From: Euglena gracilis
Lineage: Eukaryota
NCBI GenBank assembly: GCA_039621445.1
Contig: CP154954.1
Coordinates: forward strand, 10,249,521-10,313,520
Reading direction: 5' to 3'
Length of the DNA: 64,000 nucleotides
Positions 118-61,307 of this stretch are shown in pieces. Positions within the stretch are counted from its first letter, which is position 1; every line of letters begins with the position of its first letter. A model generated the notes under the pieces. It saw only the letters and a list, made by a program, of their open reading frames with translations. It made no database searches and was not told the origin of the DNA. A program made the position numbers and the translations under genes.

Positions 118-3100
118 GCCGATGCAAACGGTGCCGTGCGACTCGTCGGCGGCCTCCCGGTGGCCACTTTCGACCTCTGGAACTCGCCGGTGCAGGTCAA
201 GGCGGCCGACCTGCGGGGCTGCACACTGGCGCCCCGCCGCCCGCAAACCCGTCGCCCGCGCCGGGCGACGTCAGGCGCGCGACGGGTCACATGTGTACGT
301 ACATGAATGGCCCGAGTGATAATGCCGTGCCACTTCGGGTATTCGGGATAACGGAATCACCGTGGAGTGGCACATGTGTGTCCCGGTTAAACGTCTCGGC
401 TGTTCGCCAGGAACCGTTCGCACATCTTTGTGTCAGTCGCTGTCTCTTTGCAAGTAAAGCACAATGCCCCAATGCAATTGCACGCTGGACGCTGTAACAC
501 TTGGGGCGGGTATCTAAGATGGCAAATGCCAGCCGTCAGCAACCGCCAGTCAAACCTGTGAAAGGCTCTGCAGTTCATCAGTTTCTGTTTCCTGCTGCAC
601 TGGAGAACTTCTTTGTTTGTTTGTTGACCCTGGTGACCCGGGTTGGGCTCTACCTCTCCCTTTGGGGGCCGGTCCTTGTGGAGACCCGAAACAAAAGGCA
701 ACTGTTTTGAATGCTTTTCTGGGCTTTTGTTTTTCTAATTGTCCTGAAAACAGCAAATTCTGCGGTCCGCATCCCACCCCCTGCTGAATGCCACCGTCGG
801 GAAGGGTTGTGTTTTTCCTTCGGCATGATTTCTTTGGGATCCCAAAGTAAATCCGAAGAGTGTGCCTCCAAAGCTCTTGCACGCCCCAACGGGTTGCTGG
901 TGTTGGGAATGCCCCCCCCCCCGCGGATCAAATAGAGCAGAAAAAGAGAATATAAAAAAAACAGTTTATTGAAATAATTGAATTAATTTTAAATAATTTA
1001 AAATTGCTAAAATGAATTTAAACAAGTTGCAAATAATAACTAATAAATAAATTTAAATAAAAATAAAATGGAAAAAAAATTAAAATTAAAAATAAAGTTG
1101 AAAAGTTGAAGTTAAGTCAAAACCATCAATGACCAAGTTCTTCACAAATCAAAAAAGGGGGTGGGCAGCCCTTGCAGTGGGCGGCGGGGCGGGACCGATC
1201 CAGCGCACGACGGCGGGCACGCAGGGCGTCGTCCGGGCGGCCGGCGCAGCGCTGCTGCTGACCGCCTCGTTCGCCGTCGCCACCGCCACCGCGCGCCACG
1301 TGTTGCAGTACGCGGCCGCCTCGTCCGGCCACTGCCACCGCTGGGCTACTGTGGCTGGCCGTGTTCTGAGTAGGACCCCACAGTTTCCGGGGGGGGGGGG
1401 GTACCCCAAAAATATGAAAAATGAAATGGCAATTAAAAAAAATGAATTTTAAAGAATTTGAAATTGAACTTAAAGTGAAGAATAATAACGCCCACCTGTG
1501 AAATAAAAGTTCAATAAAAAAAACTCCCACCTGGGGGTCGTTAAGCAGCGCCCTGTTAAGGACCACCCTGCATTGAATGGAAGATTTGTTGAACCCAGCC
1601 AATCAGTTGAGCCCACCACCCGACGCTCAGCGCCAGCTGGCCTGTTTCGACCTATCCCCTTTTCGGGTGACTGCCGGGTCCGCCCCTATCGATTCCTGGG
1701 AGACATGGGAATTCCGGCCGCCCTGTGGATGATGCACGGAGGTCTCCTCCGCCACGTCCGCTCATTTTTTGGGCTTTTGATTCAAAACCACAAACTTGAA
1801 ACTGTACTTTTGGAGCCGTTGTGAACCCAAATTTCTGTGGTTCCTACCCCCTCCCGGGAAACTGTCACCTAAACCCCGTACTCTATGACCTGTCACCTCA
1901 GGGACCTGTTACACAACAAAAGCCCCCCTGCCTCCCCGTGGGAAACTGTAACCTGACAAGTAAGCGAGCACAGAGGCAGGCATGCCAGACTCCCCCCAGG
2001 CAACCAAGTGAGGGTGGCTCTGCCACCAGTCCTTCCCATTGATCCCTGTCCCGCCCTGAACGCAGGCAGTAGCGTTGCAAACTTTGGTTTACCCTCAAAG
2101 TGGCTATTTCTTTTGACCCAAAAGGCGCCAAAGGCAAAATTTGACTCCCAAAGTGTCCGCCCTACCAGAGTGGCCGCTTTGTTGTCTAAAGTATCAACAG
2201 ATCAGTCCACTTTTAGTTTTAAAATTGCTTAATTTTTTATGATTCTGAATCAAGTCTTCTGGAGATCAAAATTTTTGTGGACGCCAAAGTTTTTTTTTGC
2301 GGGATTTGTGGACACCAAAAGGAAGGCTGCCGCTCATTTGTGTACACCACGAAATTTTTTGTGGTTCATCTGTGAACACCCAAAAAAAATGTTGTGGTTC
2401 ACACGCCTTTTGTGAACCACATTAAATGGATGTCTGGTCTGTGTGAATTGGGAACCGAGGTGCACCGCGGTGAGCGGTGGCATGTCCCCGAGCCAGTGTC
2501 TGTCTCGATGGTGATGACGGGGGTGAAGCTTGACGGCCCCCAGGGCACCATAGGGCTCTCTCCAAGCTAACCACCCAAAATGTTGGTCCGATGCCAAATA
2601 CTGTCATGCCCGAGAACCTGTCAGGGTCCTGCCCGGGAAATTGTCAGGGTCCCCGGTACCGGCCAATCTGTCAGGTTACAATTTCCTGGGGGGGGTCAAT
2701 CATGGGAGCAGGCCGTATTTTAGTCGGGTGCCGACCCCACCCCGGGGGGGGGGGTGCTTGCCTGGGCAGGCACTCCAAGGCACTCCAAATCCGACCCCCC
2801 GGGGGGGGGGGGGTAGGGCACACAGCCAAAAGTGCCCTAGCACAACCCCGGCGCCGAATGCGCCGGGGAGCAAAAAAATGGCCTATTTTGAAAGGAATGT
2901 GCCTGCCTCCCTCACAGGCACTCCGGACCCCCCCTCCCCCCCGGGGTTGGTAAAAAAAACAGCCTGCATGGGAGGCTATTTCTCCTGGGCAACGTTGGCA
3001 AAAAAGGCAGTGCAGTTTGAAGATGAACATGAGCACACACTTTGCTTTTTTTGTAATTTTAGCTCGCGGTGCTCTGCGTCAGACCCCCGCCTGGGCATCG

Positions 3101-7594: not shown

Positions 7595-10500
7595 GCATGG
7601 TTGGTCTACAACTGTGCGTCATCATCGCGGTGGTGATGACGTTTGCACATTATGGCTACTCCCCACGATCAGGGTTGTTGTTTTCACCCCCCCCCATGGA
7701 AATGGAAAACTGTGGTGCCAAGGAAACTGTCCGGGACTGGCCAACCTTGAGCATCAGCGATATCTGGGACACTCGCTGTTAAAGTTCATGCCACCGGCCA
7801 AAGCTGCCAGAATCCCAGAATCCCAAAGCTGGCCTGTCTGTCAAGTGACATTTTCCAGGCGTGGGGTAACACATTATTTTATTTAAACACCTATGACCCA
7901 CTTGGCTCAATGTTTGGACAGAGTTTCACTTCAAGACTCTCAAGCAGCTTTATACTGTAATGGGAGGGTGTATGTCGGAAATTTTATCCACCCGAACACA
8001 ACCACTTTTCCTTAGCATTTAGCCATTTGTGATGATTTGGACACTATTTCAATTGTTCCCATAACCCCACCCCCCGGAAGATGGCTTTCCAGGCCTGGAC
8101 TCAGCAACCTGGTTTTATGGAGTGTCACAGTGAGTGTCACAGTTTATGGAGTGAGGGCAGGAACATCAAAAAAAAATACACCAAAAGTTTTGCCATGCGT
8201 GTTACGTGTCTCTTGCAAAAATGGTTCTATGTTTGGTTGTCTAACAAAGACCTTGAGGGTCTATATTCAGGAGGGAGACTGATTAATTCAAAAAGAACAT
8301 TTATTTCACCAAAGTCACAATCGAAAGAGCAAGGCCAAGGCCTGTGGCCATTAAAGTGAGCACCACTCATTTAAACCTCCCAACCTGCCCAAAGCAAAGG
8401 GCGCAATGCCCAAATAAATTCACCCTCCTGAGGGTCCGAAAATACGGTCTAAAAATCAGCACACCCCTCGCATTTAAATGGGGCAGTGTTCGCCTTGCAC
8501 GAACTAACGCCACTACACCCCCGAATCCATGCTCCATCCACAGGGGCTCAAAATCAAATTTGCTGTGGTGGTTCGACCTCTGCAAATTTCCATTTTAGCA
8601 ACCGTCCCCTCTCCCAAGCCGACTCCTGTTACGCCCCCCCCCCCCCCCGCACTACACTAGAAGCACGGGTGCGCTTGTGGTGGACCGCCGTCTCTGGCAG
8701 CGGGGGCTGTGCTTATATTGGGACCCTACCTGCGTGATTTTTGTCGATCTTCTTTGGAAATGCCATCAAAATTTTTAGAATTTTTAGATTTAGAAAAGCC
8801 GGGGGGGGGTTAGCTGTTTTGAAGCCACGCACGGGGCGTGACCACTTTCCACAGCCCTGGCCGTGTCGGCTGGCTGTCGGCGTAACGCGCAACACAAGGT
8901 TGAGCCGAGCCCCGGGTTTAACGCCCATGCCGTCCTTTTCACAGGGGGGGGGGGATTTGTCCACCCTATGCTCATTGGCCTCAGAGAATCTGCCTGGTGC
9001 TGTGGGCGGGGAGGTTGATCCCCACCGCCACCCCGCTGGTGTTGATTGGTGTTGGCGCTGATTTTAATGTCAAACAAACCTTCACGACATGCTGTTGCTG
9101 TGGCTGCGGGGTCCCCCTCCCCCCTCGCGCCATGTCGGGGGTTGACCACTCCACCCAGGTTCCTGTACGGTCCTCATTGCGCACTAATAGTTTTTATTCT
9201 TTTCATTAATCTTTTGAAAATGGTTTATGCTTTTGTCTTGATTCCGATTGGACATAAAGGTCGAGTGAAGACCAACACAGTGAAGGTCCACTGAGGGAAA
9301 CCCCTGAGGCGTTCAGAGTTGCACAGAGTTCCACAGGCCCACAGGCCCCATTCCGAGTGTTGTTCATCACAGAGCATAACAAAAATCCGTGTCGCACAAT
9401 CGGAGGTTTGTCAATGTTAATCCAAAGCTGACGTCAAACTCTGGCCAGACCCACACACCCAGCCGGCTACGGGTCGGACAACGTCGGTGCGGCGTCTTCT
9501 CGCCCAGTTTCAGTCCCTTTCCCAGGTTCGGTATTGCCTGTGCGGGCGTGCGTGTAATGTTTTTCACTTTGCATGAGGTTCAGACCAGGGGATGCCTTAA
9601 GGTGCTCTACTCTATTTCAGCAGAACCTGGCTGGGCAGGGCTGCCGGAAAACAGGTGCTGGCTGGCTGGACCCTTAGGGGGGGGGGGAGTGGGAACCCCG
9701 GCACATCGTTCCAGCGAGACCAAGCCAAATAAACCCCCCCAAATATAAAGCCCCCCCCCCAAACATAAAGACCCCCCCAACCCCCCCAAGGGGTTTGGTT
9801 TTTGCCGCCCAAATATAAAGCCCCCCCCTGAATTGGAGCCAGAAGCTGGTGTCATTCAGGAAAAAGTAGAATTTTTTTGGGTTTTGGATAACACTTGCAC
9901 ATTCCTGCGAAGAATAGGAGGTACACAACGACTGGCATACATACATACAGAACAATTGCCATAAAATTGGTATTTGACCACAATTGAAGGCCGCCGAAGG
10001 TCATAGAGGCCACCCGAAAAAGTTTGATTTTCGCTCCCAAGTATAAAGCCACCCCCCCCCCCAAACATAAAGCCCCCCCTGAGGGTCTTGAAATTCTGTC
10101 CAAATATAAAGCCCAGGAGGCTTCATATTTGGGGGGGTTATATATATTTTGAACCCATATTTTTGAAAAAGTCAAACACACAATCCTTGAACGGTTTTTC
10201 GGGGGTTCTCGGCTCAAAATTTTGCTATAATTTTGAAGAATACAAGCCAACTCGAGTTGGCCAACTTGGAGTTTCGCCATTTTTGGGGACAGTGGCGGAT
10301 TGCAGCCAGTCAGCGGGCGTGTGACACCTTTTTGGTCACACCCCTGTGTCCAACGACCCCCCCCCACGGTCGTTGGACATAGGGGGGGGTAAAAATCAAA
10401 AAGAAAAAAGTCAAAAAAAACCATTTTGGGTCAGTTTAACATTTTGGGATGGGGGGGAGCTTTTGGGGAGGGTCTGCTTTTTGGGGCGGTTTTGCTAAAT

Positions 10501-11620: not shown

Positions 11621-11929
11621 AAGCACCGTCGACGATGCAGGGCGATGCGGGAATTTTGGAGGCCAAAGGTGGGGATCCAATGCAGGGCGATGCAGGGCGA
11701 TGGCATGTTGACCTTTTCTCGCCCATTTTCTGACCGTTCTCTGCCCACCTTTTGGTCATTTTAGGCCATTTTCTCCTGTTTTGGTCTGTTTTTGGCTTTT
11801 TTTTTGGCCATTTTAAGGCATTTTCGGCTTTTTTTTGTTTATTTTTGGTCCGTTTTGACGATTTTTGACACAAAATGGTGTGAGATTTGGCTCGCGGATG
11901 TGCAGATGTGGGGATACGGATAAAAGAGT

Positions 11930-12135
11930 GGATGCAGAGTGCTGGTAGTGGATGCGGCGGATTCGGCAACTGGAGCGGATGTGGCTACTGGTTGCGGTGT
12001 ATTCGGCTACTGTAGTGGATGCGGTATGCGGCTACTGGATGCGGTGGATACAGCTACTGGAGTGAATGCGGCTACTGGAGCAAATGTGAGATGCGGCTAC
12101 TGGAGCAAATGTGAGATGCGGCTACTGAAGCGGAT
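11930..12135. repeat. Degenerate tandem repeat with a GCGGCTACTGGA core
   Basis: Repeated gcggctactg(g/a)a units, including two copies of atgcggctactggagcaaatgtgag. Confidence 0.7.
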
Positions 12136-12523
12136 GTTATTTGGGCAGCCGAAGTCCACGTCTAGAGTTTATCATCACCAACGAAGCATTTGTGGAAAAT
12201 AGTCACAGTTGCAAGTTGATTTCTCAGCCTGACACATGCATGCACACCTTGTGCAATAGATGTAGTAGTACATAATAGATGTCAGACACAGCAACCATGT
12301 TTCATTTCATCCCATTGGGATCACACAACAGGGTAAAAGCCTTCAACAAAATACTGTTTCCGTGTTAATCAAAATTATTTTTGGCTATGTTCTGTTTTTA
12401 ATGTTCGTTCAACATACAATATTTCAATCAGTTGTCCATATTTCTTTGTGTGAATTGCAGCGCTTTGTATGCTTCAATAGTTCTTGTGTGGATCGCGTTT
12501 TTGCAAATATGCACCCACATATA

Positions 12524-15500
12524 CTTAGGCGGCCTAATTCGCACTTAAGATTTTTATTTTTATTTGCGCACTTGCGCAAATTTCCGAATTTTTTGATTCT
12601 TCTTTGTTTCGGCTGTGAAGGTCACGTTGACAAGAGAGCGCAAAAAAATGAGCGAAATTCTGATTTTGGCGGTATGACCCCCGGGACTTTGGCAAAAAAT
12701 GGTGTTTTTGGGGTGTACCAAAATGGACTTTGTACGTCGAAACCCCCGGGGACCTTGCCGGCCCACACTGAAAAAAACGCAAAAAAGCGGCAAAGGAATG
12801 GGACCTTTACTGCCCTTGTTGCTTCTTTCGGCTGTGTCCCCGGGTGTGCCCGAGCTGCCGGCGGTGTGCGTCCTGAGTGTTTGCCGGACTGCTTTGCTTG
12901 CGACGCCTTGCTGTGGTGTTTTTGGGCTGTTTGTTAAAGCGCGGGGAGGAGGTGCCGGGGGGGTGTGAGTGTGGTGTGACCAAGCGGGAAGGAGGAACGC
13001 AGTGAGAGGAAGGTAAGTGTGGGGTGTTTGGCAAGGGAAGTGCAGGGGGGAAGAAATAGGGTCCGCAGGGACTGAGGGGGATGGGTGTCTCCCACCCGGC
13101 TTACACCCGGGATCCGCACAACCAGTTTTGTGGCAAATAACAAAGCAGAAGAAGCCCAACACTGGAAGGACAAAATTGTGTTTATTTGCGCAAATGCGCG
13201 CACCAACATGTTTATGTTTATTTGCGCAATTGCGCAAATAAACAATAAACATGTCTTTCAAGGATTGGGCTTTAGCACCCATGAACTGACGCCATTGATA
13301 AACGGTGTGATAAAGGAGCTGTGAGTGCGCAGACCAACGGGCCATCCAGTTGGTGGGTTTGTCACACTGTTTGTCGACGGCGCAAGCTCATGGGCGCAAA
13401 TGCGCAGATAAACATAAATTATGTTTATGCGCGCGCAAATAAACCTGTTCTTTGTTTATTTGCGCAAATGCGCAAATAAACACAAAGAAGAACGGTGCGA
13501 CGGAAACACAACTGACAAACACCAGCAGCAGATGTGGCTTATTTGCGCATTTGCGCGCATCACATTGTTTGTGGGCACAAATGCGCAAATAAACTGCATG
13601 AATTAACTGCACAAGTTACTATGTTTATTTGCGCATTTGCGCAAATGAACAACGAGATGCGCGCAAATGCGCAAATAAACAACCAATGGAGGAGTAAAAA
13701 GCGACTCATTTGGTCCTCCTTCTGCTACCCTTAGTGGCTTCTGAATTGGAAAGCAAATGACCACACCGTCTCCTCCGGCACATGGTGTTATGGTGCCGTT
13801 TTTGGGCCATTGACAGGTCCCAGGAAAGGTTGAGGCAAAGGATGTCCTGAAGGTGGGTGCGCAGCCACCCAGGCCACCCAGTAACGGTACACGTCCACCG
13901 GCACCAATTTTTAGGTCCCAAGGGCCCTGCCACTGGCCTGCGGCCTCGGCTCCGCTGTTGCAGCCACATCAGGTGCTGGTGCTTTCAGCACTTTTTGATT
14001 TGAAGAAGTGACACTTGAAGAAGGTGAGGGTGCGGTATATGGGGTGGTAGTCCTCCACGCTCCCCCAACCTCCCCGGTGCAACAACACCCAGCTTTAGCG
14101 GCCACGTTATATCTCGCAACCGGGGTGTGAGACTGGGGGGACGACGTGGAGCTAGTTCATGACAACCAACAGCCGGAGAAAGGTAGCCCTCAAACACCCG
14201 TTACTTTGGGTGCAAGGAATTGTTGAACCTTTACCACTGGACTGGTGGCATCAAAGCGGTGGGATTCACTCCCCCCCCAAATTATGCACAAAATCTGGTG
14301 TGTTTTACGTTTTTCAAAGGGAAAAATGGTGGAGAAATCAAGAAAAGGGACTCCGGCCCGATGCATCCCGGGTATTTCAGGTGCCAAATTTTGTCTTCTT
14401 GAAACGCAGCACTGTTGCAGAAAAGGTGTCCAACAGTCACAGGTGGTTTGCACGCCATCAATTCATGACGTTTAACTGCCAAACGGATGCCGCCAAAACA
14501 ACAGGCCGTTCGGGCCGGGTAACAGCAGTGCAAATGTGCACACACAAGACAGCCAAATTTTGGCCAGTCACATGCCATGTTCCAGTGAGCATTACACACT
14601 GCCTCTCACCACAAATTTCATCACCACGTAATCGTGGTGCAAATCAATGGTTGGCGTGAGGAAATGCATTCGCCAGCCGTCACGGAGGAGGAGATGGTAC
14701 CACACAGCTGATGTTTGTTTATTTGCGCATTTGCCCAAATAAGCACAACTTTGTTTGTGTGTGTTAAGGCTCGCTGAAACACATCATTTTGAAGCGGTTT
14801 ATTAAATGTTTATTTGCGCATTTGCGCAAATGCGCGCACAAACGTAATTGTGTTTATTTGTGCAAATGCGGATGCAAATGAAGAGAGGCACACACCCCTT
14901 GTTACGACACTTGAAAATGATGCTGAAATGCTGGCTGAACTGATTGTGATAATGCCGCCGCCGATGAACACACGGAGCCTCATTACATCACACAACACAG
15001 ACTACGTCAGCCAGCCAGCCATCACGCAACTGATGTGTGTTTATTGGCGCATTTGCGCAAATAAAAACAATTGTGTTTGTGGGCGCATTTGCGCAAATAA
15101 AACGTAAACCGATGATGATAAAATGACGTGTTGGTGGGCGCAAATGCGCAAATGCGCAAATAAACAAAATTGGTGGTGTGCGCATTTGCGCAAATGCGCA
15201 CACCAACATGTTTATGTTTATTTGCGCAAATGCGCCCACCAGCATGTATTTTACTTTCTATGTTAAAAGACACCTATGAGGACCATGACCCTACAAGGTT
15301 TTAAAACGTGATGTGCGTGTTGGTGTGCGCTCTGTTTGACATTCCTGAGCACCAATCTCACCCTCCGCCCTATTCACATCACTTGGTGAGCAGCATTTAC
15401 ACCAAACCACTGGGAGTTAATCCCCTCCAATAGAGGGTTGTAATGGTTCATAAATTGTGTTCCGTGTGTCAGGGTACAGGGTCCAGGAATTTTGTAAAAT

Positions 15501-15567
15501 TTACGCATTTGCGCAAATGCGCAAATTCTAAAGGGAAACCCCTTAAGTGCGAATTCGGCCGCCTAAG
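12524..15567. mobile_element. About 3.0-kb TIR DNA transposon, degenerate, possibly pogo/Tc1-mariner-like
   Basis: 26-bp terminal inverted repeat CTTAGGCGGCCTAATTCGCACTTAAG (12524-12549) / CTTAAGTGCGAATTCGGCCGCCTAAG (15542-15567) with 1 mismatch. It is flanked by ATA/ATA, or by TA if the TIR starts at GGCGGCC. About 20 clusters of the ATTTGCGCAAAT-type palindrome lie inside. Confidence 0.8.
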
Positions 15568-15886
15568 ATACATGTGAATTCACTCACAACGGCATTCCTG
15601 CTTGGGTTTTTTGACTCGTCTCAGTCGTTATTGTCTTTTAATGTTCTCATTGCCATAAAATTGTTGTGATATTTGTTTTTTATTTAATCCCGTCCACAGC
15701 AGGCGCCAGCTCATGTATGGTACCACACACCACCCACCGAGGCTTGCACAAGTTGGCTACTGGCTGCATTGGCAGGTGTGCTTGTGTTGCAATGCGCTTT
15801 TCTGAAATGATTGACATTTGCATTGCACCCTGAGCACCAATAGTTTCAGAATAATTTATATTTTTAAAATATATTTCAGAGTTTTA

Positions 15887-16026
15887 TGCAGTGTGCAGTG
15901 GGTGTAGGTGTGTGCATAGATGACGAGTAAATGAATTCCGGATATCTCCATATCATTGCAGTGTGCGGTGGGTGTAGGTGTGTGCATAGATGACGAGTAA
16001 ATGAATTCCGGATATCTCCATATCAT
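15887..16026. repeat. 70-bp tandem duplication
   Basis: tgcagtgtgc(a/g)gtgggtgtaggtgtgtgcatagatgacgagtaaatgaattccggatatctccatatcat occurs twice. Confidence 0.9.
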
Positions 16027-16788
16027 CACTCAGGCCATAAACTTGATAGATTCATTTAACACCTTGTGATCCGGGGGGTTTCGAGAGTTTGTTGGGGCTG
16101 CTGGACCCCCTGGGGGAGGGGGCTGCGCCAAGGTCCAGTCTGGCTGGGCCAAAAGGCTGAAATCCCTTGAAAATGTTGTTCAAGAGTTTTCGGTCAATTT
16201 TGGATGGACTGCTGGCTGGCTGGGTGGGTGAGTCTTTTCCAAGAAAGTGGGTTTGGGCTGGAAAAAGTGCACACACCCCACACTAAATTATTCCACGACC
16301 CAGGCGATGCTGGCTGATTTCTCATTTGGGATGTGGTCAGCTAGGACTGTGCCTGCTTGTCGTGTCGAGAAAACATTGGGCACACAATTTTCACAAATTT
16401 GACAGATTTTTTGTCATTTTCGCAGAAATTTGGCACACACAACTAAATTCACAACATATACATAAAAAATTTAATCTGTTTTTGTCGTCAAAAAAATTTG
16501 TTTGAAATATTTGGGTTGAAATTTGTGGGGTTGTCACCATCACCTTGGGAAGTCGTTACCTAGCCTTGTACTAAGTCATGTTCAGGGCGTTCAGCTTAAG
16601 AGAATTTTGACCGGGGGGGGGGGGCAAGCAGCAGCCTTTTTCCAGCCAGGACCCCCCAACGAGTTTTATTTATTTCGAGCCGCGCGGAGGACGGCTGGAT
16701 GGTTACACATTTTTCACTTCCAGGGGTACTAAAATGGGTCAAAAATGGGTCGGAAAAGGGCTGGCCAGGGCAGATTTGGGGCAGAATA

Positions 16789-16839
<51 letters not shown>

Positions 16840-16979
16840 TATTGGCAGTTTTTTTTTTTGGCACCTTTGACCCCTGGTCCGGCCCAGTTCAAGCCGGGGG
16901 ACCCTCATGGGAGGTTAGCCAGCAGCCCAAATTCCTTCCAATGGATGGGGGTTCAGGTGTCTCCCCCACCCCCGGCCCG

Positions 16980-19900
16980 GCCCACGGTGTTGCTGGCGGA
17001 CCCACTCGCCCCCTGCGGGCTCGCCGCACTGCGGGACGTGCGGTGCGCCGCGGTGGGGCTCGCTGGAGGCGGCGCGGAGCTCCAGGCCGCGCTGGCGACG
17101 CACCAGCCGGCCGTCCTGGTGTGCCCCCGGCCACAGTTGCCATTTTCATACAAAATTAGGCACGTTTTTTTTTTTTGCCTCGAAACCTCACACTCAGTGG
17201 GTGGACGACCTGTGTGGTGTCGCCCAGAGGATGCAACGAGACTGACAGCAACATGGTCACATCTGTGTGCAACGTGGTTGAATTTTTCAGGCAATCCGAT
17301 TCCATTGTGTCAAGGTGAGGCACTGAAACCAGATATTTTTTTAGTTCGTGACCTGGGGGGTGGGCCGACCCCCCCCCCTCCAGGCAGGGGTGTCGGGCTG
17401 TGTGGGTACCCCGCCAGAGGCGAGGTTTTGTTCTTTATTTTCCGCATGAAGCACCAAAAAAAAATTTTTGGACCCAAAATTGACTCCCAAAAGTGGATCT
17501 CCCCCCAGAGAGTGGGTACGTGTGTCCGGACCCTCCCTCCCCCGGGTGCTGAAAAAACCTCTGATTGAGACTCAGAAGTTGTTCCTTGACTCTTTTTCCC
17601 GCCTTGTGGCAGGTCGTAAGGTCCACAAAGGTCACTGCAGCCATGATGGACGCCTGCCCGTCATTGCAGCTCATTCTGCGGGCTGGTGTGTGGGTGTGTG
17701 GGTGGGAAGGTGAGTAGGTGTGGGTGTGCTATGTGTGTGTGTTATGTGCCTCTGTGTGTTTGGGTGGGTGGGTAGGTGGGTGGGTGGGTGGGTGGGGGTG
17801 ATTGTCAGGCTTCTTTAAGCGGAAGTGCGCACCCCTGGGGGGTGGGTGCTATGGGCAGGCAGAAGGGTCGGTCATTTTTTGACTTCCCCGGAGGTTGGGT
17901 TTTGGGGTGGGTGGTGCCACAGCACACCCCAGAGCCGAAGGCGCTGTGGCTGAAAAATGGCTATTTTCAAGGGAAATTTGGCTTGGTCGGCAGGCACCAG
18001 GGTCCAACCCAAACTTCTTTTCAAGTCAGAAGACCCCCTGGGGGGGGGGGTAGGTCCGGGTCTGGACCCCCCCCCCCCCCGGGGAAGGTCCCGGGGGGTT
18101 TGGGGAATGCCCTCACACGGCCCGATTTTTTGGATCCCCCCCCCCCCCTAGGGGGGAATCCAATCCCGCGCCAGGGGACCCCCCTCCCCCCCCCCGGCGT
18201 CTAAAAGTGGCCGGGTCTAAACCCCCCTGGAAGGTGTGCCTGCTATGGAGAGACACCACATATGGAACAAGACACCCCGCCTGGTGTGTGTGTGTGTGTG
18301 TGCTGCTGTGTCCAATTGTGCATTGTATAGCTGGTGCGGTGCCTCTTGAAGGTTATTGCGGGTGCGTTTTGCATTTTTGAACTGAATGGTATTTTTGGTG
18401 AAGTTCAATTGCCTTTCTTGGTGATGTTTTTCCAAAATCCACACATGGCTTCCTTGTTTTGAGATATGATTTGGTGCGGGGTGGCCACAGGGGCGGGAGT
18501 GGACAACGTCGACGTCGCCCATGCTGCTCAGCGGGGAATCCACGTCTGCAATTGCCCCGGAATGAACGCCACCGGTGTGTGCGTTTGCCTCGGTGACCCT
18601 CGTGGTTCTTTTTCTCGAAGCTTTGATCCCTTGAACAAGGTAGCTCATTTGCTTATTTTATTATTTTATTTTTTATGACACAATGACATTTGCATGTTGA
18701 GTTGGGTTTCTTGAAACTTGCAACTTGACATTCCTACCCCCCCCCCGAAAAACTGTCACCGGGACCCTGACAATGACCCTGAAATTTCATATAATGACAA
18801 GTAGGCCGGAACCAGAGACCCTGATGGATTCCCGGGCGGGACCCTGACAGTTCCCCTGGAGGGCATTTCAAGCGAAAGTAAAAGAAAAAATGACCCTGGC
18901 AGGTTGGCAGTACCGGGCTCCCTGACAACTTCCTACTCACAGGTTGGCCTGCAATAGGGACCCTGACAGTTTTCCGGCAAGGACCCGGACGGGTTCTCAG
19001 GCATGACAGTTTCCCGGGGGGGGGGGGGGTATCAGGCCCACACGATCTCGAGGACAAGGCCCGACAACAAGGCGGTCATAAAAAGACAGGATTGTTTATT
19101 TAAGGACCTGCTGATGTGCTGGAACAGGAATTTTTTTATTTAAGGACCGCCCAGGCTGACGATGGTCATCATTGGATGACAGAAATCAGGGAGGGGATTT
19201 TGGCCGCTGCATTCTGCTGCAGCAAGCGCAATCAGGTGGCAGCATCCCGGGTTGGATGAACCACGGGTTGCTTCCCGAAAAGGTTGTCAACCCCGGTGGG
19301 ACGACAAACGGTTGGAAAGGTGTGTGGTGTCTGGCTTTCCGTCATTTCCAGCGGTGGCGGAGCTCACAATCGGCCTCATGATCGCTCTTGACCGCCGGAC
19401 AGGGTTTTCTAAAGTATCGGCTCTTCACTGTGGAGGGTCTGGACCAGGCATTTTTAGGGCGAATTTTTTTCAAAAAGTTTTAAAGTTTTCCAAGCGTTTT
19501 TTAAGGTTTTCAAAAACTTAAAAAACACTTTTTTAACGCAATTTTGAGAACTTTTGAGTATTTTTAAGGTGTCTATTTTTCCAAGAGCACTCAAAAAACC
19601 ATGCTGGCATCGAACCAAAGTTGGTTCAGGTTGAAAATCAAAAAGTTCAGAACAGCAACAATTTTTTTTTTCGGTTGATAGACAATGCTTCAGCGAAGCC
19701 AAAAATCATCTCCCCCCGAGTTGGCTTGTTTTTGCCATATTTTGTTATTTCTTTTTGCTCGAAAAAATTTTTATGGTGTTTTAAGGCGCCTTAAAAAAAA
19801 TGCCTGGTCTGGACTCGGGAGGAGGGCGATTCATGGGACCCCGAAATTTTGCACCAAAACCCATCCTTCTTTCAAAGCACTTTTAAACAAAATGCCGAAC

Positions 19901-22240
19901 ACCAAATGGATCCTTTTGACGATGCCGCTGTTTAGGTGTGGGGTGCCCCCCACCCCACTCCATCTCCCCTGCTTGAACGCGAACCCTGCCGCCGGATCGT
20001 CGAAAACGTCACCGACAGCCGGCAGGGGCGGTGGGCCAAGGCAAAGCACTCCGCCGCCCTCGGCCTGGCAGGTGTGCAGTCCGGGGGTGCGCCGGGATGA
20101 CAGGTCAGTGTGTGTGATTGCTGGTTTGTCGGTTATCGCAAAATTCCCCCGCGATGAATAATATTTTTTTTCCAACCGGGTGGTAACAATGGATGACATC
20201 GGAGCATATTTTGGTCATACGTCCTATTGTTTGCTCTCAAAAAATGACGAAGGGCATTGTGCTTATATTTTTAAACTTTTTTGTGCCAATTTGTTTTGAT
20301 TTCAAATTTGCTTAAGTTTGAAATAGAGAAAACAACAAAACATCCGGCCAATTTTTTTTGGTTCATTTTAGGTTTTTTTAAGTTTTCTTCTGTTCGACGA
20401 TTTCGGATTTGGTGAAGCCAGTCATTCTGTACTTGAATACTCTTGTATTGCATTCGTACATTATCATACCCCCCCCCCCGGGCAATTGACGCCCCCAGGC
20501 AATTGACGCCCCCGGGCAATTGTCACCCCTGGCTGTGCCCGCCAATTTGTCACTCCGGGAAATTGTCACCCCCCTCTGTGCTGCCCAATTTGTCACCCTC
20601 CCGCAGAAGATGTCTGTGAATTTTCTTTTCGCCGACATAACTCGATTGATCTTCTATTTTGCTACAACGTGCTGAGAACTTTCGCATACCAAATGTTCTG
20701 CAAAATATCACAACCATAGCTGCATTTTTGCGCGTTCATTTGTGTTTTAGATGTTTTTTTTTTGGTTATTTGGTTTTTACATGGGTGGGCAATTGACACC
20801 CCTGGGCAATTGACGCCCCCGGGCAATTGTCACCCCCCCCCCCTGTGTGCTGCCCGATTTGTCGCGCGACAATTGCCGGGGGGGCGGCGGGTATCTGAAT
20901 GAGGCAGAGAAGTTTTTTATGTGACGTCATTTTTCATTATTTGTGCACTCTTAATTTCGTGGGTTGTTGGGCACCCCATGGGCATATATTTTCTGCTGCT
21001 CTCGTTGTCAGACTGCCCTCAACTTTGCGCAGCGCATTGCACCACAGGGGCTGGGGCGGGGACGTGCCAGTGTGCACTAATGTGTGAATGGCAACATCAC
21101 CAACGTCACAAAAAACCCTGCCTCCAAGCGCGATGCGGATCACGGCTTGGGCGATGTTTCCACTTCCAATCACTCCCAGCGTGCGCCCTGCGTGCGCACA
21201 GACACAGAATCACATCAGGGGATAATTGTTTGTTTTTTGAACTCACATTTCACAGCAAGGACAGCAATTGTTTGTACACCCTGATTTTTTTCGGTGGTGC
21301 CCAAACCCCGGCTCATAGAATGTGGTGACGGTGGAATTTTATTTGTTCCAGTATTTGCCGGCCCAAAAATACCTTTTCTTTTTTTTTTTTTGAGGTCGAC
21401 AGTTTCATATGAATGGGTGTTCCACACTGGGGAGGGGGTAGTTTGAAAAATCCCAATTATATTTTGGTAAAAATTTGCCTAGTCATCTCACTTTTTTTGG
21501 TGCTTATCGCTGTCTTTCAATATATCTCTTGGTTGGTCTGGTGGGAATGCCATTTTCCATGGCTTGGAATCCGGCACGTTGAGCCAAGGAGGTGAGGAAG
21601 TCTTGGACCGCTGCGTGTCGCTTGTAAAGGTTGTTGAATTTGCAACATAACAGGTGATGTCCTGAAACATCCAATGTTCCTTGGCATTTTACCACATGCC
21701 ATTTTCCCCGAAGGTGGTTGTGAAACTGAAATGTGAAACCATTAGGATTCCCAGCTGATTTTCTGAGTTGGTGAATGGCTTCTGCCAATCGTTGACGCCC
21801 GGTCAAACTTTAAGATTGTGCGCCAATATGCATAGAAATTAGACCCGAGTTTCACTGGCTGGCTCAAAAAGAAACCTCTTCTAAAATATGTGAATTATTT
21901 GAAATGAAAAATTACCCATGTGTCTGTGTGTCAAAACAGTTGAAATTGTTCTTACTCACTCTCTTCTTTCATCTTCCCGCAAAAATTCCCTTTTTTAAAC
22001 GCTTTTTTTGAGATTTCTTGAGATAAAAATATATTGTCCAAAGATCCACCAACCGATTGTCCAAAGATCCACCAACCGACTGGAGGACCCCATTTTTGAT
22101 TTGATAAACCATGGGGGGGCAGGGGGCAAGAGGGTCAACAGGAGCTATTCAAACCTTTCAAAATCTAAAGAGCTCTGTTCTTGATGCAGATGAACGTCAT
22201 CTGTTGGGGCCGGTGTGTGTGTGTGTGTGCGCGCGCGCGC

Positions 22241-22271
<31 letters not shown>

Positions 22272-25200
22272 TGCGCGTGCGTGTGTGTGTGGGTGCGTGT
22301 GTGTGTGCGTGTGTGTGTGTGTGTGTGTGTTTTGTTTGCTCCATCTCAGCAGCACATATGCACGTGAATGTGTTTGTGGGGGGAGATCTGCAAGTTTTTC
22401 AAATTTCCACAATCTTTCTTCACCTTTTGCTTTGTCCCCTTCATTTCTCTTCCACCGCATTGGCTTGAGAAGTTGCAATCAGTTATATTCATTAATTGCT
22501 GAGCTCTTCAGTGGAAGGTTCTGTGTATATTTTGCTGATAGATTTGTTTAACCAATGAAAGGTATTTCTATAATGAAATTCTTCCTTCAGTGCCATTGCT
22601 TCCCGCCACATTTGGAGTAAAGCCCAAAACCAATGTCAATTTTCCCAATCTTCCCCCAATTTTCACATTTTTGACAGCCTCCAACAACAGTCCCCCCTTC
22701 CTGAATTTTTTTGCCCAAACAAGAGCAAAGAAGCAGCCCCATGCGAAATTGTCGCCATCAGGTCTTGGCATAAGGGTTCGCAATTGTAGATTCATTTTAA
22801 AGCCTCCCCTGGGGGTGTTTCCAAGAGTGGGTGGGTGTGTTGGGGTCCCAGGAAAAAAGTGCCCCCCGGGAAACGACTAAGTGAATCTATGAAGACGTCG
22901 GTGAAAAGACGTTGGTGGTCAAGACGTCGGTGAGAAGACGTCGGTGAGAAGACGTCAGTGACAAGATGTCGGTGACAAGGCGTCGGTGACAGCCCATCAC
23001 TGGAAACTGATAGTTATTTTTTTTGGAAAATATCAGCATACCTTGGGGCTTTTGATTTGTCAAGATGATATCACCCAGGTCTCAAAACAACTTGTGTGGG
23101 TGACATTGCGTCAGGTTGCTCGTGAGCTCTCCCCATGGTCGCCAAATCGGCAAATGCCTTGTCCACAATCCTCCTTGGCATTGGGGGGTGGGGGGGGCTG
23201 GTTTTAGTTCCTGAATGGAAGATCTGCGAGGATGGCCGAGGCGGGACCTCGCTCCTTCGGATTTCACAGCTCACAGCTGGCTGCATTCTGCATTCCGGTC
23301 TCTGCCCAGGTCTCTAACTGCAGAGACGGCTGCAAAGCTTGGGACCAGGCTGCTTTGCTGAAGGCCAGGGGGGAACGTCCTCTGCCTTTCGTAGGCATAG
23401 GGGGTTGGCGTCCATGGGCTCGGCGCTGACGGGGTCCAGATCTCAACAGAGAGATGCATGGCCAACCAACTTGTCCATGTCCCCAGCTGGGTTTCTTCAA
23501 CGGAGAATTCTGTCGGGCACGGCTTGTTTCAGGGTGGACTGCAGCATCCCTGATATCTGCTGTCGGCACCCAGGGTCCCAAACAACTCGGAGTGCCTCTT
23601 TTGTGCCGCCATTCCCTTTCAGATTCCTCTGTTTTTTAAAGTTTTAAAGTTTTTTCTTAAATTATTATTTAAATTGGTTTTCAATTTATTATTATTATTT
23701 GAATAAATTTGAAATATTATTAAATTTATTAAATTATTATTTTTCTGTTTTTTATTAAAGTTTAAATTTGCATTTTTTTCCATTTTGTGTCATCCTCAAA
23801 GTGGCAGAAAACATTAGCACATTCCAGATTTCGGACAAAAGAACAAAAGCGTGGAACCCTGGGTCGGTTTCAACAAGAAGGCTGGGTGCCCCCCCCCCCG
23901 GGGACAACAGGAAATCCGCCTGGAGGCAGTCGGCTTCCGCCACTCCCCGCTGGCTGTGGCCGCCGACGCACACGTCGTGACGCTGCACGTCGCTGCCGGC
24001 CAGGGCCCTGGCCTCGAAGGAGTCCCCCCCCACCAAGACTCATTTCTCTCAGAGCTGCAGACCGCTTGAGGTGATGACTTTTTCCCACGTTTTGCATTTG
24101 CATTTTTGTTTGCATTTGCAGACTGTGTGAAACAGGTTGGAATGTCGTCGAAACCCCCGATGAACAAAATCATATTTCGGTAAATATTGCTAACTGCAAC
24201 CTCATTGGAAGTAACAACAATGGTTTTCAATTGTACCAGTCTCTCCACCGCTGTCCTCTGTGCCCGCTCACCTATATTTTAGTATGGTTCTGTACCGGCT
24301 GATTTTGTTTCCAATTTTTTCACAATTTTTTTTTATCAGTTGTTTCGTTGAAAAAGACGAAAATCTCATTGAATTTTTTTGGATTATATTTTCCTCCTCG
24401 ATTGGGGACCCCCTTTTTATATGGCTTTTTTCGAGGGAAATTTGCCTGGACACCCTGGGCTGTTAAATTGGTGGGCACCCCTCGGGGGGAGTAGGGGAGT
24501 GAAGGCTGCAAACTTATTTTGAAAAAAAATTAATTAATGGTAATTTAAAAATTAATAAAATCCATTGGAAATACAAAACAACACAAAGGTAATTTCAAAC
24601 CAATTCGTAAATTTAAACTCTTTTCGTCGATAAACCTGTGGATGGCGACATGCTCATTACCTTGGTTGTCGACAGGTCCCTACGAGGAACGCAATACGGC
24701 GCATTTCTCGTCCACAGGGGAAAAAATAAACATGTCTTCAATCCCTCATCATTGGCACGGAAATTCGAAGTTTTTGTGAAATTTTTGTGGCTTCAGCCCC
24801 CCCCCCCCCAATCTCGAAATCCGACCAGGGGCCGAAAGATTGCTTATTTTCAACCCCCAGGGGGGAGAGGCCCCCACCCACCCACCCACCCTGGGTGGGG
24901 TGGCGGGCTGGGGAGGGGGAATCGGGGCGGTCTGACAGCAAGACAAGGCAAGGAAGGTCGACCGGGGGGTGGGGGGGGGGGGGGTAATTGAAGCGCGAGG
25001 CGAAGGGTGATCGGACCGCCCCTCCAACTGCCAGAATGGGGTTGGAGGTTGTCGACAGCCACCACCCGGGGTTTCTGGGACTGCTCAGTCCCGCTCAGTC
25101 AAACTTAGGAATCGGGGCGACACGTCAATCAGGGATAAATTCAGCCTATATTTGAACCTAAATCCTTGCCCCAACCCAACCGTTCTTACCCCCCCCACCC

Positions 25201-25325: not shown

Positions 25326-28024
25326 CGCCAAAGTCCATCGATTTGCAGCTTTTCACGCTCACGGCTCCGGGTAGGCCGCTGGGCAGCCAACCGGGTTGGC
25401 CGCCGTCGCGGAGGCCGTGCGGGCCGGGCTGTGCCGCCCAACACGGAGACGGCGGGGCTGGCGGGCTGGGACTTCTTCCGGGCGTTGCGGCCTGGGGCCC
25501 TCTTCCTGAACACGACGCTGGTCTCCTTTGTGGACGAGGAAGCCCTGCTTTGGTCCCTGCGGGAGAAGGGCATCCGAGCCGGTCTCCGTCTTCTTACGTT
25601 GTGGATTTTTCGGGCCAAAAATTATTTATATTTTTTTAATTAAATTTCTTTTTTATTTTTTAATAATACAGGTATTTTAATTCGATCCCGTACATGCATC
25701 CACACAAAGGGGCCCAGCGAAGACGAGTGGACCCGGAAGAATTTTGGTACAAAGCGCCGAATTTTTTTTTGGAAAAATGGCCATTTTTGGTATTTTTTTG
25801 TGGGTTCACCTCAAAATTTTGGCCCAAAAAAAGGACAACTGAACTGTATTTGGGTTTTTTGCCTGTTTTCGGGTCCCACCCAGGTCCAGACTGGCAGCCG
25901 GGTTCGATTCTTTCTGGACCCCCACCCCCTTGGGGGGGAGCTTTTTCCAACTTAAAAAAATTACCTGACTGGCATACCAAAATTGTAGATGGCCAAATAT
26001 CCCAAAGTGTGTGTGTGGGCGGGTGGGTGGGTGGGTGTAGGTGTGGGTGTGGATGTGGGTGTTTGGGTGTGTGGGTGTGGGTGTGCGCATGTGCATGTGT
26101 GTGTGTGTGTGTGTGTGTGTGTGGTTGTGTGTGTGTTGTGTGTGTGCGTGTGGTTGGGTGGGCATTGGTGTGTGTGTGAGCCAGTCAGACATTGCACCTT
26201 CAGGAAATCTCCAGGATGCGGCCCTCAATAGCAGCCTCTTGAAGACCAGTCGGGACTGGGAGAGCTGTGGCCTGGGGTCCAAAGCGCTGTCCCCCTCTCG
26301 ATGGACATTGTTGGGACTTTTTGAGTGGTGCTTTGTGCAGTTGCACGCAAAGGAACCACTCAAATAGTTCATTTGCGCAAAGGTCCAAAGTCAATCTTTT
26401 TTTGAAGCCTTAACAGTGGGTATTTCTGAGACTACCCCCCCCCCCCCTGTCGTTCGACCACCCCTCATTTACGACCACCCCCCCCCAGTCGCAGGTTGCA
26501 GGTCGCAGGTCATGGGGGTGTTATGACCATCCCTCCCGGTCACAGGTTGCAGGTTGCGAAAAATTTAAGACCATTTTACCTACGACCACCCCCCCCGGTC
26601 ACAGGTTGCAGGTCATGGGGGTGTTACGACCCCCCCCCCCACCTGGTCACAGGTTGGAGGAACCCGGTCGGACGACAAGGGGGGGCGGGTAACACAGCGT
26701 CAACTAAGTCGACGTGTTTGTGAAGAGCATCTGAGATTCAAACAATTTCAAACAGCGTCTCAGGGTGTTGCAAACCCCCCCGCTGGCGCAGGGCTGGACG
26801 TGTTCCAGGGCGAGCCTGCCGGTGGGGCCGGGGAGTTCCGCTCCGCCCTCGCAGAGCACCCCAACGTGTACATCACCCACCACATCGGGGCCGCCACTGA
26901 GCAGGCCCAGGGTGTGTGGGTGCTGGTGGATTGGGGTTGTGTGTCTATCAAGGTGGGTGGTTGTGTGTTGTGCATTTTGCGCATTGTGTGTTCTTTATGT
27001 GTTGTATGTGTGTGTGTGTGTGTTGTGTGTTGTGTGTTGTGTGTTGTGTGTGTGTGTGTGTGCGCGCGCGCGTGTGTGTGTGTGTGCGTTTGCATGTGCA
27101 GTGCGTGTGTTGTGTGGGTGCGTGGGTGTGTAGATGTGGTGTGTGTTTGTGTCCAGTTTTATGTCATTTTCAAAGTGAGTTCTCTTGGTTGTGCGCAGCA
27201 GGATTGTGTGGGTGTTTTGTGGCATTCCGCGACTGGTGTTTATTTGTGTCGCAATGCAGTAGACGATCCCCCAGACTGCACAGGGTCAAAATCCATTGAA
27301 ATGCCTATGAGACGCAACCCGGGAAATTGTTGGGGTTCTTGCAATTGTCCGGCCTGCTAACAAGTCGTCCGGGTGCAACGCTGGTGGGCCTGTGTGGTGA
27401 CAGCAAAGATGGATGTGTTTCGCATATTTCCGCATTTTTGCGTTTTTTTGTGCAAAAAAAATTCAATTTTTTCAAACACATTTTTTTTTTGCTTTTGGAA
27501 ACACATTTTTTCGTGATTGTTACAATTTTTTTCGCTTTTTTTTACCACTTTTGCAATTTTTTGCAAATTTTAAAGAATTTTGAAACTGAAATTTTCCTCA
27601 TGATTCCATGCAATGTAAATTGGTTAAAATTTTTTAAAAAAATTTAATTGGTCAAAAAATTTTTAAAAATTTTTGTTTGGTTAAAATTAAAATACAATTA
27701 TTGTATATTGGTTTTACGTACGTTTTCATATAATTTTTGCACATTTTCTCTCAAAATTTGGAGCATTTTGCGCATTTTTTTTCTTCAAAAAGTACGCATT
27801 CTTGTGCATTTTTTTGTGCATTTCTGCGCATTTTTGCACACTTTTGTACAATGTTTTCGAGGCCAGGCGAGTGCATGGTCGCGTCGGGGGTGGTAGCCTA
27901 CGTGAGGGGTGCCGCATCGCTCTCTCGCATCGCGCCTCTGTCAGACGCCACGGCGCTGGAGGCTGTGCGGGTCATCAAGGCGTTCGTGGAGGACAGCGTG
28001 GTGCTGAATGCTGTGGTGCCGTGA
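16980..28024 (+). CDS. PHGDH: D-3-phosphoglycerate dehydrogenase-like enzyme (D-isomer-specific 2-hydroxyacid dehydrogenase), at least 12 exons, one of them inverted
   Basis: Exons 16980-17118, 17613-17685, 18491-18574, 19352-19396, 19994-20071, [21124-21187 on - strand], 22183-22212, 23310-23342, 23928-23997, 25440-25581, 26792-26911 and 27945-28024 join in frame. Product: ...[166 protein letters not shown]...LDVFQGEP...[32 protein letters not shown]...*. Family motifs [11 protein letters not shown]-x-x-AVAE, GxGxIA, LDVF-x-x-EP and HIGA are present. Start codon not fixed. Confidence 0.9.
18737..19029. mobile_element. TA-flanked MITE with poly-C/poly-G termini
   Basis: TA|CCCCCCCCCCGAAAAACTGTCA...TGACAGTTTCCCGGGGG(G)n|TA with internal CCCTGACA repeats. 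Partial relatives occur at ~1845, ~2600-2697 and ~51213. Confidence 0.75.
19400..19988. mobile_element. hAT-like MITE that constitutes nonconventional intron 19397-19993 of the dehydrogenase gene
   Basis: TIR CAGGGTT / AACCCTG with a perfect 8-bp TSD CCGCCGGA at 19392-19399 and 19989-19996. Removing the element plus one TSD copy restores GAC CGC CGG ATC (DRRI). Confidence 0.9.
19445..19806. mobile_element. hAT-like MITE nested inside the intron-MITE
   Basis: TIR CAGGCATTTTTAGGGCG / CGCCTTAAAAAAAATGCCTG with a perfect 8-bp TSD GTCTGGAC (19437-19444, 19807-19814). Confidence 0.9.
20469..20891. mobile_element. TA-flanked MITE with poly-C/poly-G termini
   Basis: TA|(C)nGGGCAATTG...CAATTGCCGGGGGGGCGGCGGG|TA with internal GGCAATTGACGCCCCC direct repeats. 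Confidence 0.7.
21124..21187 (-). CDS. Inverted 64-nt exon of the dehydrogenase gene (Rossmann NAD-binding motif)
   Basis: The minus strand reads cgcag|GG CGC ACG CTG GGA GTG ATT GGA AGT GGA AAC ATC GCC CAA GCC GTG ATC CGC ATC GCG CTT GG|agg-cagggttt, i.e. (G)[20 protein letters not shown](G). Both phases match the flanking + strand exons. Confidence 0.9.
21520..21700 (-). mobile_element. Remnant of an RLE-type (CRE/SLACS/R2-like) non-LTR retrotransposon C-terminus
   Basis: With frameshifts the minus strand reads [47 protein letters not shown]...QPRDIL. This matches a CCHC zinc knuckle, an RH motif and a P-x-D-I endonuclease-like motif. Confidence 0.6.
22891..22990. repeat. About 14-bp tandem repeat (AAGACGTCGGTGA)
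   Basis: About seven degenerate units. Confidence 0.8.
23343..23927 (+). other. Nonconventional intron
   Basis: CTT GG|gac-CAGGC...GCCTG-gaggc|A GTC. Register N3/N5|R; the join restores KLG-VGF. Confidence 0.8.
23998..25439 (+). other. Nonconventional intron
   Basis: GCT GCC|ggc-CAGGGCCCTGGCC...GGGCCGGGCTGTG-ccgccc|AAC. The arms pair with one mismatch and one bulge; the join restores the family-like HVAANTET. Confidence 0.65.
26435..26689. mobile_element. TA-flanked MITE with poly-C/poly-G termini
   Basis: TA|(C)nTGTCGTTCGACC...GGTCGGACGACAAGGGGGGGCGGG|TA with internal GTCACAGGTTGCAGG repeats. Confidence 0.75.

Positions 28025-28378: not shown

Positions 28379-35958
<7,580 letters not shown>

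Positions 35959-42103: not shown

Positions 42104-61307
<19,204 letters not shown>

Follow-up and report, generated by a model that had tools for sequence, protein, structure and literature searches.

Can a DNA transposon that lands in an exon become, through its own ends and the short duplication it makes, an intron of the nonconventional kind? The origin of this second intron class of Euglena has been a puzzle for three decades, and the question is raised again by a locus in a 64,000-nucleotide stretch of Euglena gracilis DNA (assembly GCA_039621445.1, contig CP154954.1, positions 10,249,521 to 10,313,520 of the forward strand), hereafter the window, in which coordinates are counted from the first letter. 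Here a non-coding element, element C, and the copies of its 8-bp target-site duplication (TSD) interrupt a conserved exon, ..ALDRR|IVEN.., in a gene for a D-2-hydroxyacid dehydrogenase. The structure is very probably a transposon insertion; element C is also predicted from its sequence, with a somewhat better than even chance, to be a nonconventional intron.

Anatomy of the insertion and its predicted splice register

Element C begins with CAGGGTT and ends with AACCCTG; this terminal inverted repeat (TIR) is 7 bp long and perfect, and the next bases inward, TTC and CGC, are unpaired. The element is bordered on both sides by the direct repeat CCGCCGGA, which is exactly 8 bp long and extends on neither side. 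A deletion of 597 nt gives an identical mRNA in all nine equivalent registers, and GT/GC-AG ends are present in 0 of the nine that are compatible with the mRNA. The initial annotation of this locus had described an element with TIRs and an exact 8-bp duplication of exon sequence, lacking GT-AG, and this anatomy is confirmed at 19392-19996. It had also described an intact, young copy. The word "intact" suits the element ends, but otherwise does not apply, as the element is non-coding (219 bp that are its own, with a nested insertion; GC content 0.41), has an inverted repeat of 7 bp and occurs just once in the window; youth is at most suggested, just eight free positions being unchanged. A larger composite element at 19400-21120, with the ends CAGGGTTTT, was considered and rejected; its flanks match at 4/8 positions, against the perfect duplication of the element that ends at 19988.

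The code for nonconventional splicing was defined by Nomura et al. 2025 through knock-ins in E. gracilis, and is given there as the signature 5'-N3CDG-/-CH'GN5-6|R(exon) (PMC12501133). In that study a length of 3 nt was strictly required of the 5' spacer, whereas the 3' spacer of 5 nt could also be 6; the exon had to resume with a purine, base pairing that follows CAG and precedes CTG was needed, and fully synthetic 50-bp introns built on the code are spliced in E. gracilis (PMC12501133). The layout of element C, GGA-CAG-GGTT...AACC-CTG-CCGCC|G, matches this published code. In the N3/N5 register the first 5 nt of TSD copy 1 belong to the exon and its last 3 nt (GGA) form the 5' intron spacer, and the first 5 nt of TSD copy 2 (CCGCC) form the 3' intron spacer, after which the exon restarts at G 19994, a purine. 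In a predicted fold of the 597-nt RNA the bases GGUU/AACC lengthen CAG/CUG to seven pairs, CAGGGUU/AACCCUG, with pairing probabilities of 0.90-1.00.

The spacer of 3 nt that precedes CAG and the spacer of 5 nt that follows CTG add up to one 8-bp duplication. Because the element ends in CAG/CTG and its duplication is 8 bp long, cuts at -3 and +5 take out the element and exactly one copy of the duplication; the arithmetic proposed in the initial annotation therefore holds. The broader claim made with it, that any such MITE (miniature inverted-repeat transposable element) in an exon would be removed seamlessly, stands on two conditions: a purine at position 6 of the duplication and pairing that continues beyond CAG/CTG.

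Removal in this register is predicted to restore a DRRI motif, which runs uninterrupted in two homologues as well as in a homologue profile built from 70 sequences (150 homologues were collected). The exon upstream of the element, exon 4a, matches profile positions 100-116 (19351-19401), and the exon downstream, exon 4b, matches positions 114-142 (19990-20076); the overlap of the two corresponds to the residues RR, for which each copy of the duplication codes. The joined frame is colinear and gapless with the homologues ..CDRRIAEQT.. and ..CDRRIPDQT.., and matches ..CDRRIAEQTADSRGGKW...

The course of events proposed for this locus begins with a non-autonomous, hAT-like DNA transposon with CAG...CTG termini, which would have inserted into an exon of a D-2-hydroxyacid (phosphoglycerate-type) dehydrogenase gene and duplicated the 8 bp CCGCCGGA of that exon; a second element of the same kind, element D, would later have inserted into element C. 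The CAG/CTG ends, the four further pairing bases and an 8-bp duplication with a purine as its sixth base would together reproduce the splicing code base for base. The ends of the element would fold together in the pre-mRNA, cuts would fall 3 nt ahead of CAG and 5 nt past CTG, and the predicted removal of 589 + 8 = 597 nt would restore ..ALDRRIVEN... The insertion, the duplication and the fit to the code can be read off the DNA, and the mobile class is documented by its other members in the window; we infer that element C is excised from RNA and that the transposase responsible belongs to hAT.

The same reasoning may apply more widely. It is possible, at slightly under an even chance, that CAG-terminal DNA transposons with 8-bp duplications are the ancestors of most nonconventional introns in euglenids, and that the 3 + 5 ruler of the splicing code serves to cancel the duplication. 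The spacer lengths measured by experiment, 3 and 5 nt, together equal the 8-bp duplication made by a transposon class which this genome contains and in which it is mobile, and so insertion and excision would cancel exactly. If this is true, nonconventional splicing would serve the host as a defence matched to a single transposon superfamily, which renders exonic insertions harmless; young introns throughout the genome would carry exact 8-nt junction repeats, and active CAGG-terminal elements would be present in Euglena genomes along with their transposase.

A class of CAGG-terminal elements in the window

Element C is accompanied in the window by the nested element D and by three further elements, A, B and E (Table 1). 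The 8-bp duplication is exact in elements C, D, A and E and matches at 7/8 positions in element B, and these repeats cannot be extended. Element D carries its own perfect duplication at 19437-19444 and 19807-19814, and its inverted ends agree at each of the 11 terminal bases scored. Elements A and B belong to the same family (227/286 identities); their similarity runs from the CAGG end to one base beyond the CCTG end, and their flanks and duplications differ. No convincing open frame crosses the empty sites of elements A, B and E, which are therefore treated as non-coding insertions. That the class is mobile is indicated by the two copies of the family of A and B and by element D, which sits within element C and has a duplication of its own. 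Elements A, B and E lie outside recognisable coding sequence. It is concluded that the genome holds mobile, non-coding CAGG-terminal elements whose integration is staggered by 8 bp, and that one such element lies in an exon. In 5/5 elements, of which four lie outside exons, the sixth base of the duplication is a purine, a hint of a target preference. The nested element, the three further elements and an 8-nt repeat published for Euglena agilis, considered below, make the case stronger than that of the initial annotation.

Chance was assessed as a source of the repeats by counting flanking 8-mers around CAGG/CCTG pairs that lie 50-3000 bp apart and have terminal complementarity of at least 8/11 (n = 428). 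An exact 8-mer repeat in register flanks 4/428 of these pairs, and 5 have a repeat with at most one mismatch; exact repeats around the same pairs numbered 0 in each of 168 shifted registers. Chance is accordingly rejected as the origin of the 8-bp repeats. An unfiltered count of 8-mer repeats around every CAG...CTG gave 7, against 3-57 in shifted controls, and is not significant because low-complexity DNA and simple repeats are abundant in the window. A further scan admitted any 3-nt terminus and covered 203,659 pairs, of which 20 were left after a low-complexity filter. Fourteen of the 20, headed by ATG, GCA or CGC, lie within a palindromic GCGCAAAT repeat at 13.1-15.5 kb and are treated as artefacts; two are single cases (28990-29251 and 29226-30777). 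The CAG-headed pairs (elements C, D, A and E) number 4 of 1,931, with about 0.03 expected, and form the sole recurrent non-artefactual class in the scan.

Several smaller features concern the same elements. The family of A and B is GC-rich (0.65-0.67), with CAGGCCGTATTTTAG termini and poly-G/poly-C tracts, and short matches to its interior are found at 4035, 44457 and 45043. The longest open reading frame (ORF) of element E has no Pfam domain; within the element about 270 bp are duplicated in direct orientation (its own positions 447-717 and 870-1138, which are 79% identical), and it also has a T-rich tract. Near 44 kb there are a 72-bp mini-element, CAGGGTTT...AAACCCTG (44028-44099), with an 8-bp perfect inverted repeat and unrelated flanks (3/8), and a 319-bp CAGGCT... 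element (44214-44532) with a flanking repeat of 6/8; both may be older members of the class.

Table 1. Positions of the insertion, related elements and host-gene features in the window
Feature	Position	Strand	Description	Basis
TSD copy 1	19392..19399	+	CCGCCGGA	read from sequence
Element C	19400..19988	+	589 bp, CAGGGTT...AACCCTG; non-coding, hAT-like	read from sequence
TSD copy 2	19989..19996	+	CCGCCGGA	read from sequence
Predicted nonconventional intron	19397..19993	+	597 nt, N3-CAG/CTG-N5 register	published code and predicted end pairing
Element D	19445..19806	+	362 bp, CAGGCATTTTT...AAAAATGCCTG, nested in element C; duplication GTCTGGAC	inverted ends and duplication
Element A	2709..2966	+	258-bp MITE, CAGGCCGTATTTTAG...CAGCCTG; perfect 8-bp duplication CATGGGAG; non-coding context	inverted ends and duplication
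Element B	30900..31171	+	second copy of the family of A; duplication CTCCAGGT/CTCCAGCT (7/8)	similarity to A
Element E	45356..46729	+	1374 bp, CAGGGCTGTCC...GGACCGCCCTG; perfect 8-bp duplication GGGAAACG	inverted ends and duplication
Exon 4a	19351..19396	+	dehydrogenase gene; GT-AG intron upstream	tblastn and homologue profile
Exon 4b	19994..20066	+	dehydrogenase gene; GT 5' splice site downstream	homologue profile and joined frame
Exon 5	21126..21188	-	host gene, NAD-binding loop	homologue profile, i-E-value 1e-4
Intron 2	7667..8864	+	nonconventional, GAT-CAGGGTTG...CAGCCCTG-GCCGT|G	N3/N5 rule against P0001

The host gene and the weighing of alternatives

A search with the neighbouring exon led to P0001, a protein of 263 aa (eukprot:EG_transcript_23072), and to bacterial-type homologues resembling D-3-phosphoglycerate dehydrogenase; the attribution of P0001 to Euglena depends on that one source name. 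Eleven exons of P0001 were located by tblastn on the plus strand from 7238 to 19392, with 84-100% identity per exon, and about 12/263 residues differ between the window and P0001. Judged by these exon matches, the window locus belongs to the nuclear genome of Euglena, and is the same gene from another strain or else a close paralogue. The eleven introns as far as the element C site, itself counted as one, were classified by eye; six with GT-AG ends and one with GC-AG ends make seven conventional introns, intron 2 and, by prediction, the element C site are nonconventional, and for introns 3 and 7 no register in agreement with P0001 was found when their junctions were read by eye. Intron 2, when cut by the N3/N5 rule, gives ..GYSPRRLAVGV.., which matches ..GYSPRRLAIGV.. 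in P0001; its flanks match at 3/8 positions, so that a duplication is no longer present.

Further nonconventional-looking intron starts beginning with CAGGG are seen in the same gene: ggc-CAGGGCCC at 24001 and agg-CAGGGTTTTTTG after exon 5. The first of these introns, at 24001 and 25427-25431, reads ggc-CAGGGCCC...GGGCTG-tgccg|c; the repeats TGCCGGC/TGCCGCC adjoin its CAG and CTG, match at 6/7 positions and are one base short of 8. Its first exon base is a pyrimidine, and its fit to the published code is incomplete. The GxGxxG motif of the gene reads GSGNIA in this copy (25431-25586).

Two sets of observations weigh against reading element C as an intron derived from a hAT-like transposon, one concerning the state of the host gene and the other the identity of the elements. 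Exon 5 is found only on the minus strand, opposite to the rest of the gene; the family NtsRG motif reads NTTLV (region 25431-25586), with the Arg-Gly and thus the catalytic, substrate-binding arginine replaced; and P0001, the sole Euglena transcript-derived protein for this gene, ends ..MIALD at the insertion site. A query with exon 4b gave no match among database proteins of 96-2000 aa, a query with a 3' exon gave distant homologues only (at most 79% identity, none with a Euglena source name), and profile positions 162-180 were not located in the window. The dehydrogenase copy looks impaired downstream of the insertion and may, from its motifs, be a pseudo-enzyme or a decaying copy. All of these points except the missing profile positions, along with the residues that differ from P0001 and may mark a paralogue, speak for a plain disruptive insertion into a decaying or non-functional gene copy, in which the element stays in the RNA or the locus gives no useful mRNA, and in which the fit to the code merely follows from hAT-like ends and an 8-bp duplication. 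This explanation is considered doubtful, though it is a serious rival and the weightiest of the alternatives. All detected exons are open and in frame, and the conventional splice sites that flank them are intact. Exon 5 has a good 3' splice site on its own strand, its phase fits exon 4b and it is followed by agg-CAGGGTTTTTTG; ..GGAACCCTG, the matching end of the intron downstream of exon 5, is on the plus strand (23853-23861), ahead of the next exon. The pattern, within 20067-23867, looks like a simple inversion of up to 3.8 kb of sequence, which may be real or may be an assembly error; a search for its breakpoints did not locate them, and neither a flanking inverted repeat of at least 22 nt that would explain an inversion nor a flip in strand skew was found. 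The end of P0001 (19390-19392) lies within two bases of the start of the TSD, and could reflect coincidence, an assembly break at a branch point between spliced and unspliced forms, or a truncated transcript; a missing database protein is in any case weak evidence. Moreover, the code sufficed for the splicing of synthetic introns (PMC12501133), so any transcript of the locus should be cut regardless of the function of its protein.

The identity of the elements is the second matter. Assignment to hAT, as made in the initial annotation, draws on two structural traits, the 8-bp duplication and the CAGGG terminus seen in element C, element E and intron 2; on these traits it is reasonable to regard the elements as hAT-like. 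The target consensus of hAT elements is nTnnnnAn, and this is not evident here, T being found at position 2 in 2/5 and A at position 7 in 2/5 of the duplications, a small sample. No transposase was seen among the 10 of 61 window ORFs of at least 170 aa that were scanned with Pfam, the sole match being a dehydrogenase domain below the cutoff. A second copy of element C was not found within the 64 kb, nor was one of element D, and an excess of 6-7/8 flank matches that would mark older copies was likewise not found in the window. The YARNG termini that together with 8-bp duplications are typical of hAT (PMC3014272) are fitted by the CAGGG ends, but the CAGGC ends of elements A, B and D miss the fifth base. 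It is conceivable, though unlikely, that the elements belong to another superfamily with 8-bp duplications, such as Merlin, P, Zisupton or an undescribed group. In addition to the CAGGC termini and the lack of a transposase among the scanned ORFs, this is favoured by the report of two Merlin families with 8-bp duplications in E. gracilis (PMC8101967), and by literature searches that found no paper on Euglena hAT elements or a hAT transposase; the Merlin report mentions hAT as a superfamily. However, all Merlin families described in that report, those of E. gracilis included, start with GG (PMC8101967), and the inverted repeats here open with CA immediately next to the duplication; the combination of CAG termini and 8-bp duplications is a stated hallmark of hAT (PMC3014272). 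It has also been proposed, by Milanowski et al. 2016 for the 8-nt repeat of a newly gained gapC intron (PMC4770533), that such a repeat is a by-product of double-strand-break repair that captures filler DNA, without integration by a transposase. For the present elements this is very improbable: repair would be expected to leave repeats of varying length and to lack conserved inverted ends, while the length is exactly 8 in 4/4 perfect cases and in the 7/8 case as well, the repeat always directly adjoins CAGG...CCTG inverted termini, and one family occurs twice with different flanks.

Relation to known introns and transposons

The nonconventional introns of euglenids, as described in PMC12501133, share with element C the absence of GT-AG, CAG at +4..+6, CTG at -8..-6, the 3- and 5-nt spacers, a purine as first exon base and pairing beyond CAG/CTG. 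Element C differs in that both of its spacers are still identical to the adjoining exon bases, making up a full 8-bp duplication. According to the same paper, "slidable" introns were set aside in the derivation of the motif (PMC12501133); for annotation, introns that are "slidable by 8" would be the informative young ones and not noise to be discarded. The class is a large one, and accounts for 71.8% of all E. agilis introns (PMC12501133).

A close published parallel is intron 4 of gapC from E. agilis ACOI 323, which is present in one strain only, shows every feature of a nonconventional intron and carries direct repeats of eight nucleotides at its junctions (PMC4770533). Like element C it has 8-nt junction repeats, and it was judged recent since other strains are without it; unlike element C it lies in a working gene, its absence from other strains is documented, and its repeat was read as a trace of double-strand-break repair (PMC4770533). 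It is independent support for the view that young nonconventional introns carry 8-nt repeats.

With respect to transposons, hAT MITEs such as hAT-HT2N of the anole, with CAGGGGTCC termini, resemble the Euglena elements in their 8-bp duplication, short CAGGG (YARNG) repeats, lack of coding sequence and length of several hundred bp (PMC3014272). The Merlin transposons of E. gracilis also make 8-bp duplications, as the window elements do; they start with GG and encode a DDE_Tnp_IS1595 transposase, whereas the window elements start with CAGG and are non-coding (PMC8101967). The Euglena elements differ from hAT MITEs in having no known autonomous partner or transposase, in showing no evident target consensus and in the CAGGC termini of some copies.

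The locus also bears comparison with introners. Introners, as in Huff et al. 2016, are reportedly spliceosomal introns derived from transposons. They are DNA transposons in exons that are removed from RNA, with the element ends and the duplication setting the cut sites and the frame being restored (review: PMC11282704); they use the ordinary spliceosome and GT-AG-type sites and exist as many near-identical copies, whereas element C would use the separate machinery of Euglena. Multiple near-identical copies of element C or D were not found within the 64 kb, and a scan of metagenome contigs for exact matches to the 5' ends of elements C and A gave 0 each.

The idea that transposons gave rise to these introns, acknowledged in general terms in the initial annotation, is indeed a long-standing hypothesis: a MITE-like origin of nonconventional introns was proposed in 2014 (PMC3935182) and has been repeated in 2024-2025 (PMC11170887, PMC12621601 and the discussion of PMC12501133). 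In the 2024 review CAG/CTG are labelled "TIR" and the junction repeats "TSD", and "hAT" occurs 0 times (PMC11282704). In the main texts consulted, no statement was found that links the 3 + 5 spacers to an 8-bp duplication or that names hAT for these introns. The general idea presented here sharpens a known hypothesis into one that can be tested, and is not a new kind of system; the locus joins MITE-like ancestors, "TSD-like" junction repeats and the 8-nt repeat of a new intron in one testable statement.

Two repeat tracts of the window affect scans of this kind. The 4.6-kb intron 6 of the host gene contains, at 12500-15600, a dense array of palindromic TTGCGCAAAT/ATGCGCAAATAAAC units, which produces many spurious inverted-repeat and direct-repeat signals. 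At 54989-56966 there is a (CA)n tract of about 2 kb, with about 1,000 units, which yields artefactual long ORFs of 685-738 aa.

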